From IMG/VR virus record IMGVR_UViG_3300045988_054439: DNA of 34,726 nt. One strand, written 5' to 3'. Positions 1,678-34,726 of this stretch are shown piece by piece; within the stretch, counting starts at the first letter, position 1; each line of letters starts with the position of its first letter. The notes under the pieces were generated by a model. It was not told where the DNA came from. It did no database searches and worked only from the letters and a program-made list of their open reading frames with translations. Origin of the DNA: a virus. The translations under genes were made by a program, and so were the position numbers.

Positions 1678-2955
1678 TTATTTCCTCATATTTGCTTTTT
1701 TTTTGTAAAATTCAAAGCCATAAACCAATTCTTTTATATAATTTGGGACAATTTTAATTTTAGGACTTTTCAAAAGCTTTTCAAACATTTCCGGTGTCGG
1801 TATTCCAGTTTGACCATCAAGCTGAACGCACAACCAATGAGAGTACATTTGTGTCCCTGTTAATTCTTCAATTTCTTTCGCTTTTATGCCAGTTGATTTT
1901 AGCCATTTCGTAAACTTCAATCTATCTTGTGGCGAATCGCTCCTTTCAAAGTTCCCAAAAATGACGGGCTCGTAAGAATCAAAAATTTCTTTTGAATCCA
2001 TTATGTCTACAAAACTTTTGCTTCTTAAAAATTTAGAGCTTCCTGCGTTTTGATAAATAGCTTTGAAACATCCAGCGGTTCCAGACTTTTCCATCATTTC
2101 GGTTGCTTCAACTTTTTCTCCGTTGTATATGTGTTCAAGATTATATTTATTTATCTTAAAGCCTTCTACGCCCTCACATCCGCAGCAAGTCATACTGTCG
2201 CCCATTGTTCGCAACCTATTTTCGGCGCACATAAAAGTAAGACCCAAGCTGTGGCATTTTTGCTTTATCGCTTCATAATCTTTTACAAGAATATGCTTCG
2301 GATATACAAAATCTCCTCCGACTTTAATAAGCCCGGGTTTAGGCTTTACAAACTTCATGTTTTCAATCGTAATTCCATAAATTCCGATTTTTGCATATTC
2401 GTCAAGACTTTGCATTACCTCTTCAAAGACTTCGGTCATATACGGCTGAATGCGGACAACAACCCTTTTACAATTACCAACAAGTTTTCTAAGCATTTCA
2501 AGTCTTTCGGAATATTTCGGGGCACCTTTTTCCAAAACATCATATTTTGAACAAACCATTGAAACCTGAACAACTGCATTGCATTGCCTCAAAAGGCTCA
2601 AGTAATCATCTTCGCAAATAAGTTTTCCCTTTGTGCTTACTATAAACGGATATTTTGTTTCTGCAAAAATCTTTAATGCTTCATAACTTATTCTATGGAC
2701 TTTTTCGCAGGGCTGAAATGGGTCACTCATTCCGCCCCAGTGCAACGGAATGCCCCAATCGCACCACTTTGTAACTTCGCTTCTCTTGCCGTTTATAAAA
2801 TCTTTTAATTGCTTCAAGCAGTTATCTTTTTCAATTTTTGTTATATCGCTTTTCCTTTGAACAAAACAATATTTGCAGGCATGCGAACATCCTTTATATG
2901 TATCAATTCTGACAGGGCAATCGCACAAAACAATTTGAGAACCACAAGCAATCAT
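1678..2955 (-). CDS. Radical-SAM protein of the SPL / 'DNA repair photolyase' (COG1533)-like type, with a C-terminal HTH-like extension
   Basis: CxxxCxxC cluster motif GCSHACKYC near the N-terminus. Motif order (WGGMSDPFQP, IVSTKG, VQVSM, RIQPYM) resembles SplB-like enzymes. The C-terminal ~90 aa read IKAKEIEELTGTQMYSHWL...GIPTPEMFEKLL. GC is about 33-35% in hand-counted lines, against more than 50% in the flanks. Confidence 0.7.
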   Translation of the reverse strand: MIACGSQIVLCDCPVRIDTYKGCSHACKYCFVQRKSDITKIEKDNCLKQLKDFINGKRSEVTKWCDWGIPLHWGGMSDPFQPCEKVHRISYEALKIFAETKYPFIVSTKGKLICEDDYLSLLRQCNAVVQVSMVCSKYDVLEKGAPKYSERLEMLRKLVGNCKRVVVRIQPYMTEVFEEVMQSLDEYAKIGIYGITIENMKFVKPKPGLIKVGGDFVYPKHILVKDYEAIKQKCHSLGLTFMCAENRLRTMGDSMTCCGCEGVEGFKINKYNLEHIYNGEKVEATEMMEKSGTAGCFKAIYQNAGSSKFLRSKSFVDIMDSKEIFDSYEPVIFGNFERSDSPQDRLKFTKWLKSTGIKAKEIEELTGTQMYSHWLCVQLDGQTGIPTPEMFEKLLKSPKIKIVPNYIKELVYGFEFYKKKANMRK

Positions 2956-2956
2956 T

Positions 2957-3526
2957 TTATAATACTCCCATGATCTTCAACAACTCTTTGCTATAAAACT
3001 CTTTTGTCATTTCTTTTATCTTGCCCTTAACGGCGTCCTCATATTGTTTCGGAAAACAAAAAGAAATTGAAAATTCTTCTCTTTGAAGTTTATTGTTGTT
3101 TGTCATACAGTTTTCGTCTTCAAGAAGTTCATCAATATAACTCAATTGTTGACCTTGTTCGTTCACTTCAAAGCCAAAATCAAAATCAAAATCACTAAAA
3201 TCAAGATCTGCAATTTCATCCGCCAGCAGGTCAAAGTCCCAGTCGCTCTCATTGCTCTTGTTATCCACCAACCGCAGGGCGTTCACTTGTTCGGGTGTCA
3301 AGTCGTCAACACAAACGCACGGCACCTCCTTCAGCCCCAGCTTCTTTGCGCCAAGGGCTCGGCAATGACCGATCACAATCACGCCGTCCTTATCTACAAC
3401 GATAGGCTGAACGAAACCATACTGCCGAATACTCTCGGCCACATTGTCAATTTGCGTTTGGTCATGCTTTTTAGCGTTCTTCTCATACGGCTTGATTGTA
3501 TCAAGCGCTCGCATTTCAACCTTCAT
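2957..3526 (-). CDS. ParB/Srx N-terminal-domain protein with an acidic linker
   Basis: Start chosen at MKVEMRAL (SD AGGAGG upstream). Carries ParB-N motifs (KPYEKNAKKH, GFVQPIVVD, IGHCRALGAKKLG) followed by DWDFDLLADEIADLDFSDFDFDFGFEV. No ParB HTH or dimerisation domain is recognisable. Confidence 0.75.
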   Translation of the reverse strand: MKVEMRALDTIKPYEKNAKKHDQTQIDNVAESIRQYGFVQPIVVDKDGVIVIGHCRALGAKKLGLKEVPCVCVDDLTPEQVNALRLVDNKSNESDWDFDLLADEIADLDFSDFDFDFGFEVNEQGQQLSYIDELLEDENCMTNNNKLQREEFSISFCFPKQYEDAVKGKIKEMTKEFYSKELLKIMGVL

Positions 3527-3573
3527 CAAAACGCACCTCCTAAATATAATTGTAGCAGAAAAGCCACCAAAAA

Positions 3574-3903
3574 TCAACTTTTTGGCGGCAAATGATAAAA
3601 CGCTCTGTATAATTCCTCCGCTGTGTCCAGGTTCTTGTCAGCGGTGTAGGCTTCCGTGGCGGCGGTGATCCGTTCCTCCAGCGCCAACGATTCTCGGCTT
3701 AAAAATTCCGCTTTCGACCGCAGCAGGGTGCAGTTGTACCGCAGCGCCTCTTTCTGCCGCTTCGCTGTTTCTTTGTCCATCAGCCCAGCACGGAATAGCC
3801 GATATATAGCCAGCAAGCCAATATACTCGGCACTGTCCGCTGCTGTCAGCCCTTTCGGTAAGATTTTGCCATCAGCGGCGGCTTTTTCTAAACTCTTGTC
3901 CAT
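3574..3903 (-). CDS. Hypothetical helical protein; first gene downstream of non-coding module M1
   Basis: 109-aa ORF with SD AAAGGAG before the ATG. No recognisable motif. Confidence 0.6.
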   Translation of the reverse strand: MDKSLEKAAADGKILPKGLTAADSAEYIGLLAIYRLFRAGLMDKETAKRQKEALRYNCTLLRSKAEFLSRESLALEERITAATEAYTADKNLDTAEELYRAFYHLPPKS

Positions 3904-4218
3904 TATCTCGCTCCTTTACGCAAAACAACCTACAATGTAGTAGTTCGTTTGTAGCGACCCATTTTTGGCTCAACCACGCCAAATTTTAGACTTTCGAACC
4001 GCTACAAACTACAAAAACTACGTTTTCTCCTATAAATATATTTCTATTTTTACTTTTTTTCTTATTTTATATTATTCTCTCAAATAATGTAGTGTTTGTA
4101 GTGTTAGTATATAGAATGTGGTTTTTTTGGCTTTGTTGCGCCAAATTTTCGGACTACAAAGTCGCACTACAAAGCCTACTACAACGCTACAAACACCACG
4201 AAGGCGGCAGATTTTTGG
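3904..4218. repeat. Non-coding module M1, paralogous to M2 at 28065-28308. Carries 11 copies of the CTACA(A)/TGTAG motif in conserved order around an AT-rich core.
   Basis: Motif copies at 3930, 3936, 3950, 4002, 4009, 4088, 4097, 4154, 4167, 4179 and 4187. Blocks shared with M2: TGTAGTGTTTGTAGTG, AGTATATA, TTTTTGGCT, GGACTACAAA. There is a ~60-bp core of about 85% A+T and no ORF. Confidence 0.85.
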
Positions 4219-5685: not shown

Positions 5686-6232
5686 TTCCTCGCCTCCTCA
5701 AATCGGCCTGTGTTAGCCTTTCATCCGCCAAGCCTATCCGTTGTAGCGCTTCAACGAAAAGCGGGTTTAACGGCTCTGTGGCGGCCTGTGGGCGGTATTT
5801 GCGCAGCTGGTAGTCCAGCCTTGCCCACTCGTCGAACGCCGCCCAGTAGTCCCGCTCCAACCGCTCTTGCATTGCTTTTTCGGCCTTGCGTTTCTCTTTG
5901 CGCTCCCTGGTGGCCTGCTCCATTCTTCGCTGTTCTCTGACGGAAATTCGCTGACCAATCGGCAAGCCAAGCGCAAAATCATTATTCAATTTCTCGCACG
6001 CTTTCCAAAAAGAAAGTCCAAAATATTCTTGCACGAATGTCAAAATGTCGCCGTTCTCTCCGCACGCAAAACAGTGGTAGCCATTGCTTCCGGAATAGAC
6101 TTGCATTGACGGCGTGTTGTCGTTGTGAAAAGGGCAGACAGCACGCCCTTTCCTGTCAATATGAATGCCGTATGCTTCCAGCACCTCCGCCGTGTCCAGC
6201 CGTTCCTTGATTTCTGTTGCATAATCAATCAT
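5672..6232 (-). CDS. CHC2 (DnaG-type) zinc-finger protein, primase-associated
   Basis: CPFHNDNTPSMQVY...YHCFACGENGDILTFV is a CHC2 zinc finger. Start taken at MIDYATEIK (ATGATTGA overlap with the upstream stop). The C-terminal half is a basic coiled coil. Confidence 0.75.
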   Translation of the reverse strand: MIDYATEIKERLDTAEVLEAYGIHIDRKGRAVCPFHNDNTPSMQVYSGSNGYHCFACGENGDILTFVQEYFGLSFWKACEKLNNDFALGLPIGQRISVREQRRMEQATRERKEKRKAEKAMQERLERDYWAAFDEWARLDYQLRKYRPQAATEPLNPLFVEALQRIGLADERLTQADLRRRGSAYR

Positions 6233-7140: not shown

Positions 7141-7683
7141 TTATATCTCATCCCCAAAAGAGTTCCAGCCTTTTCGGGTGTTTCTTGCAAATAACTCCAC
7201 CTTGGAACAGTTAGGGAACATATCTTCAATCATTTTGTAAGCGATTTCGGGCTTTTTGGAATGGCTTGTTGAGTGTTCTCGCAAAACAGTGGTATATTTG
7301 CCACGATATTCTTTGATTGGCATAAGAATTTTTCCTTTTTTGTAAAACCACAATAAATATTCGTGCGAGTATCTTACAGTAAACGCAGGAGCAACGCCGT
7401 TTTCCTTATCCCATATAATGCGAGCGTGCAATTCATACCCTAACTCTCGCATAAATTTTTCCGTTTGCGGTAAAAACTTGTCAATCGTCCACATAAAGAC
7501 ATTGTGTTTTTCTGCGGTGTTATTAACGAGAAATTGTTTGTGCAGCTCTTTTATATCGCCGAGGTTCATGGTCTTATAATCAAGCTCTTTGCCTTGATTT
7601 GGTCTGCATTTTCTTGTATTGCCTTTTTTCTGCTGCCACGGCGGGTCGGAGTATATAATTTCATATTTTTCCGTATGTTTTTT
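7141..7683 (-). CDS. MT-A70-family N6-adenine DNA methyltransferase; start codon unresolved
   Basis: The catalytic DPPW motif (IIYSDPPWQQKKG, D codon 7647-7645) lies upstream of the first in-frame ATG (7569). The frame is open from 7683, immediately after TAA 7686-7684, with only ATT/ATA as candidate starts. Confidence 0.65.
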   Translation of the reverse strand, partial: KKHTEKYEIIYSDPPWQQKKGNTRKCRPNQGKELDYKTMNLGDIKELHKQFLVNNTAEKHNVFMWTIDKFLPQTEKFMRELGYELHARIIWDKENGVAPAFTVRYSHEYLLWFYKKGKILMPIKEYRGKYTTVLREHSTSHSKKPEIAYKMIEDMFPNCSKVELFARNTRKGWNSFGDEI

Positions 7684-33648: not shown

Positions 33649-33888
33649 TTATTTGGCCACGCTCAAAATAAGCGGACTTTCTTTTTTGCCGATTTTTTTG
33701 CGTAAAATCGTATTCACAAAATATCGAATATCATCCATGCAGTTATGAACGATCAAGCCGCCGTTAACGGAAAAGTTGTGCGTGCCGATCACTTCCATGT
33801 TATACACGTCTTCATTTTGCACACTCTCGATTTTTAGCACCTTTACAAGATTGGCAGAACTTCGTTTTTTGGTACTTGTTCGCGACAT
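33649..33888 (-). CDS. terL: Terminase large subunit, C-terminal fragment: the split-intein C-half (49 aa) plus a 30-aa C-extein
   Basis: SD GGAGGGG and ATG 33888. Reads ...VYNMEVIGTHNFSVNGGLIVHN (Asn codon 33744-33742), then Cys+1 (33741-33739) and CMDDIRYFVNT. This completes the TerL nuclease motif ENDH-x-MDDxRY. Confidence 0.8.
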   Translation of the reverse strand: MSRTSTKKRSSANLVKVLKIESVQNEDVYNMEVIGTHNFSVNGGLIVHNCMDDIRYFVNTILRKKIGKKESPLILSVAK

Positions 33889-34444
33889 ATTCCCCTCCAC
33901 ACCTTTCACAGATTTTTGTCACATTGTCAAAGCCCATCTTCCTGCGATATGCAGATTTGCATTTGTTTGAGCAAAAGCGGTTTTTGTTCTCGCCATACGT
34001 TGCCTTTGTCTCAAATTCTTTTCCGCAGAAGGTGCAACGATAAGACTTCAAGGGCATATTTTTGAAAGTTTCGATTGCGTGTTGCGAGTGCCATTTTTTG
34101 CCCTCTTCGCTGCCATGCCATTTAGACGCTTTTGGTCTCGCATTTTTTGCGAGGTTTTCCCTCGCCCACTCTCGTCTTTCCTCGCTCCACGAACTGCCAT
34201 GCAAGTTAGAATGTTCTTTCGCTGTCATCAGCACAAGGTTTTCGATTTCGTTGTTGTTCTTATCAAAATTCTTGTGGTGAACGTTGTACCCCTTTGGGAC
34301 TTCTGAGCCGTTGTAATACTCCCACACATAAACGTGAAGCCGTTTGTGTGTTTTCGCATTCAAAAAATATCCGGTTTTCTTATCTCTGCGGAACGACAAG
34401 CCGTCAAAGCAAGCGAGATCGCCGTCGTCAACATATTGAACCAT
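33812..34444 (-). CDS. Free-standing HNH homing endonuclease (HNH_3 type) with tandem C-terminal zinc-finger repeats
   Basis: SD GGAGGA (34457-34452) and ATG 34444. HNH motif VHHKNFDKNNNEIENLVLMTAKEHSNLH. Two CxxCG...FCxxxCK repeats. Confidence 0.85.
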   Translation of the reverse strand: MVQYVDDGDLACFDGLSFRRDKKTGYFLNAKTHKRLHVYVWEYYNGSEVPKGYNVHHKNFDKNNNEIENLVLMTAKEHSNLHGSSWSEERREWARENLAKNARPKASKWHGSEEGKKWHSQHAIETFKNMPLKSYRCTFCGKEFETKATYGENKNRFCSNKCKSAYRRKMGFDNVTKICERCGGEYVANKYQKTKFCQSCKGAKNRECAK

Positions 34445-34489
34445 AGTTACATCCTCCGTGAATATTAATCTACAAATATTGTAGCGCAT

Positions 34490-34627
34490 TTAGTCCATAA
34501 TGTCAACGATTTTGCTTGATTGCGTTAGATATTTTGCCTTTACCCATCCTTTGTCGGTCAAAACTTTGTGATCTTCGGTGCATTTAATAACCTTGCCGTT
34601 TTCAAGCGTTATTTTCAAAATCGGTTG
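34490..34627 (-). CDS. terL: Continuation of the terL N-fragment: the last 45 residues of the split-intein N-half, plus the stop
   Basis: In phase with base 1 across the junction. Reads ...NQPILKITLENGKVIKCTEDHKVLTDKGWVKAKYL...IVDIMD then TAA (34492-34490). TEDH is intein block B. Confidence 0.8.
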   Translation of the reverse strand, partial: QPILKITLENGKVIKCTEDHKVLTDKGWVKAKYLTQSSKIVDIMD

Positions 34628-34726
34628 ATTTTTTTTTGTTCTTCTCACACCAAAAAACGGTCTTATACATTTCTTTTTCCGCTTCTCGTTGTAACTCCAA
34701 ACAAGACCGATTTTTCCAACAAGGTC
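34628..34726. repeat. Second copy of the 99-bp terminal repeat (identical to 1-99)
   Basis: Exact identity to the window start. Confidence 0.95.

Follow-up and report, generated by a model that had tools for sequence, protein, structure and literature searches.

We report that the 34,726-nt viral DNA stretch of IMG/VR record IMGVR_UViG_3300045988_054439 (hereafter the window, to which all coordinates refer) carries, just upstream of its terminase genes, a gene for a ParB-like protein followed by a gene for a radical S-adenosylmethionine (radical SAM, rSAM) enzyme. In the interpretation that we favor, at a probability of roughly 0.6, the two proteins form a ParB-assisted radical enzyme that modifies the DNA of this gut-type phage after replication, and their genes probably constitute one exchangeable cassette of the phage “ParB–terminase” DNA-modification locus. 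The gene order is ParB–rSAM–terS–terL, all on the minus strand. The original prediction, made from the letters of the window, had noted two tightly linked genes just upstream of terS (it did not state the strand), and the spacings agree: 1 nt separates the ParB stop codon from the rSAM ATG, and 14 nt separate the rSAM stop codon from the next open reading frame (ORF), 1274–1663(−). The rSAM ORF spans 1678–2955(−) (425 aa; stop codon 1678–1680, ATG 2953–2955). The ParB-like ORF spans 2957–3577(−) (stop codon 2957–2959), and its most likely start, in agreement with a 189-aa homologue in L001 (L-numbers label the homologous or sister loci that we compared), is the Met codon at 3526, which would give 189 aa. 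The features on which the argument depends are as follows.

1678–3180, minus: swapped low-GC cassette, comprising the ParB linker and tail and the rSAM gene (GC trough and identity breakpoints)
3242–3526, minus: ParB N-terminal nucleotide-binding domain (aa 1–95; Pfam ParB_N, AlphaFold2 and Foldseek)
3077–3241, minus: ParB acidic linker (aa ∼96–150), which holds the left cassette junction at ∼3170–3197 (model confidence and motif)
2957–3076, minus: ParB C-terminal tail (aa ∼151–189 plus stop codon), a strand and a long helix specific to rSAM-linked ParBs
1951–2955, minus: rSAM catalytic core (aa 1–335), with the C23/C27/C30 cluster and the family-wide C11 and C257/C258
1678–1950, minus: rSAM C-terminal helical extension (aa ∼336–425 plus stop codon), present in the long form only and homologous to an N6-adenine methylase insert
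1274–1663, minus: probable small terminase subunit gene terS, the right anchor of the cassette (weak PHROG matches and synteny with terL)
3574–3903, minus: orf109, a 109-aa ORF to which no function is assigned, the left neighbor of the slot (no family match)

Cassette replacement between orf109 and terS

Five sister phages (L044, L045, L049, L050, and L052) show 88–94% nucleotide identity to the window from position 6000 down to 3170–3181 and again from 1643–1663 downward, with no alignment in between; overall, the breakpoints are sharp and fall at ∼3170–3197 and ∼1643–1673. GC content is 0.30–0.40 between ∼3200 and ∼1680 (one inner bin reaches 0.49) compared to ∼0.5 outside, and this trough coincides with the nucleotide-identity breakpoints. 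Exchange takes place in the conserved ParB N-domain/linker at one end of the cassette and at terS at its other end. Because of where the alignments break, the mobile unit can be delimited as the ParB linker and tail (aa ∼117–189) together with the rSAM gene; the junction lies inside ParB, and the rSAM therefore arrives with its own ParB tail. The flanks are stable: orf109 is kept upstream of ParB in the sister phages whichever effector is present, and close homologues of the terS ORF sit directly after the slot in all of them.

Scanning IMG/VR with the ParB protein retrieved at least 484 relatives with 65–91% identity, whose similarity ends after residue ∼120–150. The ParB domain in those loci is usually the N-terminus of a 363–455-aa protein, directly followed by a terS homologue, and Pfam identifies the C-terminal parts of these fusions as N6_N4 DNA methylases; in other loci a ParB of ∼200 aa precedes either a member of the Mom family (E 5.7e-54) or a GNAT-like protein. 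The original claim that the pair occupies the slot of a ParB-fused DNA methyltransferase is thus borne out, since sister phages of 88–94% identity carry ParB::N6_N4_Mtase, ParB+Mom, or ParB+GNAT-like at this very place. Among the 80 closest ParB N-domain loci, the slot occupants were:

ParB::N6_N4 methyltransferase (MTase) fusion: 58 of 80 loci
ParB fusion with an unclassified C-terminal domain: 10 of 80 loci
ParB + GNAT-like protein: 3 of 80 loci
ParB + Mom: 2 of 80 loci
ParB + rSAM: 2 of 80 loci, plus 1 truncated

There is also a large family of ∼197-aa ParBs, with an N-domain identity of 70–82%, that is always paired with Mom; these pairs stand upstream of terminase-position genes and the portal gene.

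Two of the other occupants deserve separate description. The C-terminal domain of the 403–450-aa ParB fusions found in ten sister loci (including L055:1391–2614, L056, L062, L064, L082, L092, L100, L106, and L118) is unmatched by the methylase probes; ParB_N was the sole Pfam match of the L055 fusion, and at least five of the ten hold a second copy of the acidic linker motif. These fusions may represent a further effector type in the same slot. The GNAT-like protein of L045:4569–5408, L046, and L047 is 280 aa long, gives a weak Acetyltransf_1 match, and follows a 210-aa ParB, in phages that are ∼90–94% identical to this one; it may be a Mom-like acyltransferase acting on DNA.

The ParB-like protein and the radical SAM enzyme

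Linkage of the two genes extends well beyond these sister phages. All close IMG/VR relatives for which there is upstream sequence encode a homologous ∼190–220-aa ParB directly upstream of the rSAM. Among one-genome-per-species bacterial contigs, we found 80 rSAM loci, 72 of them with enough upstream sequence; ParB is immediately upstream in 56 of the 72 under a strict rule and in ∼64 when over-extended ORF starts are allowed for. Neighbor clustering of 105 rSAM loci placed ParB in 87, of which 82 have it at position −1 and 18 have a further copy at −2; no other gene was comparably linked to the rSAM. ParB and rSAM are adjacent in ∼83–89% of loci, in various phyla and with various terminase types. 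The original prediction had asked, as a check, whether the rSAM gene consistently neighbors ParB or terS, and this survey answers in its favor. The nearest large ORF on the downstream side of the rSAM is in most loci a TerL, and these TerLs belong to at least three Pfam types. The loci come from Collinsella, Eggerthella, many Clostridia, Bacteroidales, Planctomycetota, Elusimicrobia, Victivallales, and others, and we take the named host lineages to be anaerobes; two loci, L165 and L197, are from the isolates Clostridium hydrogeniformans DSM 21757 and Atopobium minutum DSM 20586. With a ParB N-domain gene and a putative modifying-enzyme gene immediately upstream of the terminase genes, the arrangement is that of a ParB–terminase (ParB-Tls) locus.

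A four-gene variant occurs at ∼12 loci (including L006:4795–7861, L129, L132–L134, L136, L138, and L183), with two tandem ParB paralogues, a short-form rSAM, and a pyridoxal phosphate (PLP)-dependent fold-type-II enzyme (PF00291) whose gene overlaps the rSAM stop codon. Distant rSAM paralogues (27–29% identity) adjoin a C5 DNA methylase, PAPS-reductase-like genes, a PLP enzyme, or ParB; in L029 the order is PAPS-reductase-like, rSAM, and then the PLP enzyme of the four-gene variant. The four-gene variant and the L029 order suggest amino-acid- or sulfur-derived hypermodification, and the PLP-variant loci and paralogue neighbors support the placement of the rSAM family in DNA-tailoring pathways.

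For the ParB-like protein, the original prediction described a ParB N-domain followed by an acidic linker, and placed this combination on the N-terminal side of phage and plasmid methylase fusions. Both statements hold: Pfam ParB_N scores 35.2 bits (above its cutoff), SDWDFDLLADEIADLDFSDFDFDFGFEV is present in the protein, and the methylase-fusion models phrog_498 (“DNA methyltransferase”) and PADLOC MTase_II match residues 1–135 and 2–123. The AlphaFold2 model has a per-residue confidence (pLDDT) of ∼90 in the N-domain, 51–69 in the linker, and 82–93 in the tail (C-terminal domain, CTD, residues 151–186), and the acidic linker, in which the motif WDFDLL..E is conserved, is predicted to be disordered. 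Foldseek superposes the N-domain on M. xanthus ParB–CTPgammaS (7bnr) with a root-mean-square deviation (rmsd) of 2.0 Å over 95 columns. The ParB profile aligns only residues ∼6–98 to structures of Spo0J, Noc, and ParB, and the nucleotide-binding domain (NBD) alone matches ParB, Noc, and KorB. Residues S32, G53, R56, and N89 are invariant and align with the CTP-pocket motifs of Spo0J; the hydrolytic Glu is absent, because GERR is replaced by GH(x)R. Neither the AlphaFold2 model nor the profile and Foldseek matches contain a helix-turn-helix (HTH). An N-domain with a nucleoside triphosphate (NTP) pocket, joined to a CTD with no HTH, is also the composition of the 5mYOX-type ParB discussed below.

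The tail distinguishes the ParBs that accompany rSAM. Its motif F.(T/S)F.FP..Y...I..YIK.NGK occurs in all rSAM-adjacent ParBs, even where N-domain identity is only 17–25%, and is absent from the Mom-, GNAT-like-, and MTase-linked ParBs; a hidden Markov model of the CTD matches the ORF immediately upstream of the rSAM in 55 of the 72 genome loci. These data bear on whether the two genes are simply unrelated neighbors. On that view ParB would be a nuclease of packaging or partition that assists the terminase, and the rSAM a passenger “moron” carried into a hot spot of recombination. The slot clearly is such a hot spot, with varied cargo, and ParB-like nucleases and HNH genes are common beside phage terminases. 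Yet the pair stays together in the large majority of loci despite differing phages, terminase types, and phyla, the cassette junction falls within ParB so that the rSAM brings its own tail, that tail's motif is common to rSAM-linked ParBs and absent in others, and the genes lie 1 nt apart. We consider independent neighbors very improbable.

Turning to the enzyme, the 425-aa rSAM with a GCSHACKYC-type cluster motif that had been predicted 1 nt past the ParB stop is present as described: the protein contains YKGCSHACKYCF, giving CxxxCxxC at C23/C27/C30. The C23-x3-C27-x2-C30 motif is conserved in 96% of 150 diverse family members; in the same set C11 is conserved in 93% and the C257–C258 pair, which sits in a Gly-rich loop, in 98%. 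Other invariant residues are Y20, Y29, Y102, and Y118. This conserved Cys-Cys-Gly loop bears only a loose resemblance to RlmN/Cfr; no RlmN/Cfr family appears among the Pfam and NCBIfam matches of the enzyme, nor in Foldseek at E ≤ 1e-3. Homologues of the rSAM number 972 in the 90% database; in the library clustered at 50% identity, 1,729 clusters reach E ≤ 1e-3 and 131 of these reach E ≤ 1e-30. dN/dS is 0.07–0.08 against two relatives, denoting purifying selection, and the AlphaFold2 model has a pLDDT of 91.7. On the basis of the homologue counts, dN/dS, and model confidence, the gene is functional, and the conserved cluster motif together with a confident model matching many rSAM structures places the enzyme in the radical SAM superfamily. 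PADLOC returned no defense-system match for it, and its PHROG match, phrog_13321, has no assigned function. A tblastn search of 50,697 GenBank phages gave a single weak match, and the family is essentially absent from cultured phages.

The placement near spore photoproduct lyase (SPL) and COG1533 that had been proposed is supported by the top-ranking fold matches and by remote homology. The top four PDB matches in Foldseek are SPL entries (including 4fhg, 4k9r, and 4fhf), with E from 4.5e-8 to 2e-7. The best NCBIfam matches are the Rv2578c family (NF038135; E 1e-15, 57.7 bits against a cutoff of 430) and the PA0069 family (NF033668; E 5e-13, 48.7 bits against 360), both far below their cutoffs; Pfam Radical_SAM reaches 24.4 bits (E 3.7e-5; cutoff 29.5). 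Aligning the family profile with hhalign to gp53 of phage M6 gave a probability of 93.8% (E 1.7e-7, 178 columns), covering the pre-cluster Cys/Ser segment and an (S/T)DPF.P.E motif; BLASTP identity to gp53 is 19% over 113 aa.

Given the fold, the enzyme might be thought to repair DNA, as an SPL-type lyase that reverses thymine–thymine (spore-photoproduct-like) lesions in dense, dehydrated capsid DNA while ParB aids scanning. The nearest solved fold is indeed SPL, COG1533-type families are the best sequence matches, and database sources name relatives “DNA repair photolyase”. However, SPL is missing from the four NCBIfam families that the enzyme matches, gut and sediment anaerobe hosts have little UV exposure, and the gene lies in a late packaging operon instead of with early or virion-delivered functions. 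The cassette is moreover interchangeable with methylase, Mom, and GNAT, which are modifiers and not repair enzymes, and the PLP enzyme added in some relatives suggests biosynthetic tailoring. Repair therefore appears to us improbable.

The rSAM family has two length classes, a short form of ∼335 aa that is the majority and a long form of ∼405–460 aa to which this enzyme belongs. The extension of the long form has helices at 342–417 in the AlphaFold2 model, and the original prediction likened the C-terminal ∼90 aa to an insert of phage DNA methylases. This likeness proved to be homology to adenine methylases: tblastn with an extension consensus gave 22 phage matches, of which at least 17 fall in genes whose annotation is DNA methylase (including PY54 gp60, VHML ORF17, and phiKO2), and GIKAKEIEELTGTQMYSHWLCVQLDGQTGIPTPEMFEKL is 51% identical over 39 aa (E 2e-9) to residues 175–210 of PY54 gp60, which lie inside its PF01555 domain. 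The match is independent evidence for a DNA substrate. The extension profile does not match the sister phages' own ParB::MTase fusions, so the extension was not inherited from the replaced methylase. Other searches with the extension returned little: PHROG scans gave phrog_6952 “DNA methyltransferase” for 9 of 23 members at a best E of 0.016, a PDB profile search gave matches at chance level (an XRE-type repressor among them), and the 77-aa extension alone retrieved only a near-identical fragment from an index of 5.8 billion proteins, where it shares too few words with other entries.

The extension also bears on the idea that the rSAM acts on something other than DNA (a nucleotide, an RNA, or a protein such as terminase or capsid) or is an anti-defense enzyme, for example through SAM consumption or a nucleotide analogue made from ParB-bound NTP; ParB would then be no more than a partner that regulates it or binds nucleotide. 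In favor of this, rSAM enzymes have a versatile chemistry, the peptide-modifying SkfB, CteB, and SuiB appear in Foldseek at E 1e-5 to 1e-3, no curated family accommodates the enzyme, and ParB-fold proteins can bind CTP, ATP, or GTP (PMC12704722). Against this stand the DNA-methylase-derived helical module of the long form, the fusion or pairing of the same ParB N-domain with bona fide DNA modifiers in sister phages, and the action on DNA of the nearest characterized homologues, SPL and M6 gp53; nor do the 105 loci show a conserved neighbor resembling a precursor peptide or a nucleotide-metabolism gene. We regard a non-DNA substrate as unlikely. A viperin-like role on ParB-bound CTP was also considered as a leading explanation and rejected, since this ParB domain also occurs in methylase fusions and the enzyme resembles SPL rather than viperin.

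Candidate DNA modification and known systems

How ParB-assisted radical modification of DNA might proceed can be outlined as follows. The ParB-like protein would serve as a DNA-loading or activating adaptor, its C-tail docking the rSAM much as ParB activates phage thymine dioxygenases on double-stranded DNA (dsDNA), and the rSAM would hold DNA partly through the C-terminal helical module borrowed from adenine methylases. The [4Fe-4S] cluster at C23/C27/C30 would cleave SAM to yield the 5'-deoxyadenosyl radical, which would abstract hydrogen from a base in the phage DNA; the resulting radical would be resolved with help from C11 and C257/C258, acting as H-donor, methyl carrier, or ligands of a second cluster. 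The covalent base modification would be made late in infection, together with the packaging genes, and would shield the DNA of the progeny against host nucleases, a part that methylase or Mom cassettes play in sister phages. We infer the physical ParB–rSAM interaction, the DNA substrate, the protective role, and the chemistry from such context, and the same holds for the DNA modification, repair, and anti-restriction activities named in the original prediction.

For the chemistry, our first guess, a doubtful one, is attack at the thymine C5-methyl or the pyrimidine C5–C6 region, chosen because SPL and M6 gp53 both use a thyminyl (C5-methylene) radical; RlmN/Cfr-style C-methylation through the conserved Cys pair is the second guess and seems unlikely. 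The scanned ORFs of this genome match a dUTPase, a truncated MT-A70, an ERCC4 nuclease, Sak4, a VapE-like protein, a CHC2 zinc-finger protein, and structural proteins, or are unmatched; among them we found no 5-hydroxymethyldeoxyuridine (5-hmdU) synthesis enzyme, 5-HMUDK kinase, aGPT-Pplase, or PLP decarboxylase. The substrate would therefore have to be canonical or host-methylated DNA. It is possible, if tentative, that ParB and rSAM write a new modification directly on canonical bases of dsDNA by radical chemistry, for example a functionalized thymine C5-methyl group or a C-methylated base. The original prediction had set the system apart from known thymidine hypermodification, and this is partly right, as the rest of that pathway is absent while the rSAM is remotely homologous to M6 gp53.

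Several points weigh against the modification reading. All that bears on the substrate is guilt by association, and the gp53 reaction itself cannot occur in a phage that has no 5-hmdU pathway. The enzyme scores below the cutoffs of every curated family in Pfam and NCBIfam. The SPL fold match is modest (TM-score 0.42–0.56, rmsd 4–5 Å, 17% identity), with SkfB, CteB, and NifB near behind in Foldseek (other rSAMs from 1e-5), and neither phmmer nor the family profile reaches SPL among PDB sequences. The extension cannot be essential for the reaction, because the majority short form lacks it, and ∼10–17% of loci have no adjacent ParB. Finally, in a mirror-tree analysis of 79 loci the ParB tail is no more correlated with the rSAM than is the N-domain; the pairwise-identity correlations (Spearman 0.32 for the N-domain and 0.26 for the tail) are weak and non-discriminating, and are therefore evidence neither for nor against tail–enzyme co-evolution.

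The closest functional precedent is the subclass of phage thymine dioxygenases that needs a cognate ParB on dsDNA; the partner ParB has an NBD and a CTD, both required, with no obvious DNA-binding domain, and terminases are frequent companions of these loci (O'Toole et al., PNAS 2026, PMC13229309). Like ParB176 of the 5mYOX176/ParB176 pair, our ParB is a stand-alone NBD + CTD protein with no HTH, encoded beside a post-replicative (here putative) DNA base-modifying enzyme and often near terminase, and the pocket numbering is comparable (S29/R56 there, S32/R56 here). The effectors differ, being an oxygen-sensitive rSAM here and an Fe(II)/2-oxoglutarate 5-methylpyrimidine dioxygenase there, and so do the hosts, here presumed to be anaerobes, where a dioxygenase that depends on O2 would be unable to function. 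If the named hosts are so taken, the enzyme could, speculatively, be the anaerobic counterpart of the O2-dependent ParB-activated dioxygenases.

The ParB::N6/N4 MTase fusions and ParB+Mom pairs share with our cassette a ParB N-domain of 65–91% identity, the linker motif, the slot between orf109 and terS, and the late/packaging context. They differ in effector chemistry, radical here as opposed to SN2 methyl transfer or acyl transfer, and, in the case of the MTase fusions, in that ParB is here a separate polypeptide with a distinct C-tail. A catalogue of phage ParB-fold fusions by Kaljevic et al. (PMC12704722) includes N6N4 methylases. “ParB-Terminase large subunit loci” were named by Aravind's group and predicted to modify phage DNA during packaging, according to a passage in PMC4738411 that cites Iyer et al. 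2013.

Among rSAM enzymes, gp53 of phage M6 is an SPL-like rSAM that isomerizes N-alpha-glycinylthymidine in DNA and has been presented as the first rSAM with a part in making a DNA modification (Lee et al. 2021, PMC8989533). Our enzyme resembles gp53 in being SPL-like and in the shared pre-cluster Cys/Ser segment and (S/T)DPF.P.E, and gp53 acts on the DNA polymer. In contrast, gp53 depends on 5-hmdU, on a kinase and an amino-acid transferase, and on a PLP decarboxylase, none of which is found in this genome, and no ParB partner is mentioned for it (PMC8989533). SplB (PDB 4FHC–4FHG, 4K9R), the best PDB fold, is a DNA-acting rSAM that works via a thyminyl radical, and its CxxxCxxC has similarly placed His and Tyr (CMGHCHYC compared to CSHACKYC here). 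Besides the low identity and TM-score, SplB differs in serving sporulation where our enzyme belongs to a prophage packaging operon. SPL has a catalytic H-donor Cys (C141 in B. subtilis) and a Tyr relay; we matched C11, C257/C258, and the methylase-type extension to no SPL feature. The Rv2578c and PA0069 (COG1533) families, the best sequence-family matches over the N-terminal ∼200 residues, are cellular and uncharacterized, and our enzyme scores far below their cutoffs (58 bits against 430 for the former, 49 bits against 360 for the latter).

Already known are the concept of the ParB–terminase locus, the activation of a DNA modifier by ParB, and an SPL-like rSAM that acts on phage DNA. What is new, as far as we have checked, is their combination in a minimal cassette, ParB and rSAM alone, that takes the place of a methylase and occurs widely in anaerobe prophages. 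Our literature search found no report of a ParB–rSAM pair, which may have been predicted earlier in Iyer et al. 2013; “radical SAM” has 0 occurrences in PMC13229309 and PMC12704722, and “ParB” has 0 in PMC8989533.

Neighboring genes and biological meaning

The window has an exact 99-nt direct repeat at its two ends (1–99 and 34628–34726), and from this shared repeat we conclude that it is a circularly closed complete phage genome of ∼34,627 bp (∼34.6 kb). The terS ORF has weak PHROG matches (phrog_309, 1.5e-6; phrog_606, 1.5e-5). Scans of orf109 against Pfam, PHROG, and PADLOC gave no family match. One further feature belongs to the terminase region.

1–1290, minus: terL N-part, which crosses the circular junction into 34490–34627

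The junction-spanning terL ORF is 475 aa long and 93.5% identical to the ORF in the terL position of sister phage L004. terL looks “fractured” by a split intein across ORFs 1–153(−), 33812–34489(−), and 33649–33888(−). The N-part ends ...VVKENDH|CLTGDTVV, an intein block A, and the intein runs on for ∼90 aa before a stop; next come a free-standing ORF for an HNH endonuclease and then a 79-aa ORF ending ...GGLIVHN|CMDDIRYFVNTIL, which comprises an intein C-terminal block and a C-extein with the TerL nuclease motif. The ORF layout of L004 (475 aa, 225 aa, portal) is alike, a comparison of layout and not of intein sequence.

An MT-A70-type DNA methylase ORF at 7141–7569(−) matches only the C-terminal half of the models (phrog_359 positions 151–293 of 329; Pfam MT-A70 41–172 of 172). 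The gene may be truncated or a pseudogene, and the phage would then have lost one methylase. By consensus match, a hairpin that resembles a terminator (3549–3589(−), an 11-bp stem and a T-run) stands at the end of orf109, and a promoter-like site with an extended −10 overlaps it just upstream of the ParB start; together they could be a transcriptional control point for the ParB–rSAM–terminase unit. Between the VapE-like primase/helicase gene and orf109 lies an AT-rich intergenic stretch, 4001–4100 (GC 0.21), that could be an origin or late-promoter region.

To our knowledge, the DNA modifiers of phages comprise methylases, Mom, dioxygenases, glycosyltransferases, deazaguanine enzymes, and multi-step thymidine pathways, and M6 gp53 is the only rSAM known to install a DNA modification, though all it does is rearrange a base that is already hypermodified. 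A ParB-guided rSAM cassette that replaces a methylase one-for-one suggests a new, compact, oxygen-free route to a non-canonical base, in phages whose hosts are gut anaerobes such as Collinsella, Clostridia, and Bacteroidales. Natural swaps of the cassette provide near-isogenic phages in which the effector alone varies, which makes for an unusually clean experiment. If the modification reading is right, the cassette would encode the first stand-alone radical SAM DNA “writer”, widespread in prophages of gut and sediment anaerobes, and with it new DNA chemistry; it would extend the activator role of ParB to a second superfamily of enzymes, account for some of the resistance of gut phages to restriction, and could yield a sequence-directed tool for radical DNA labeling.

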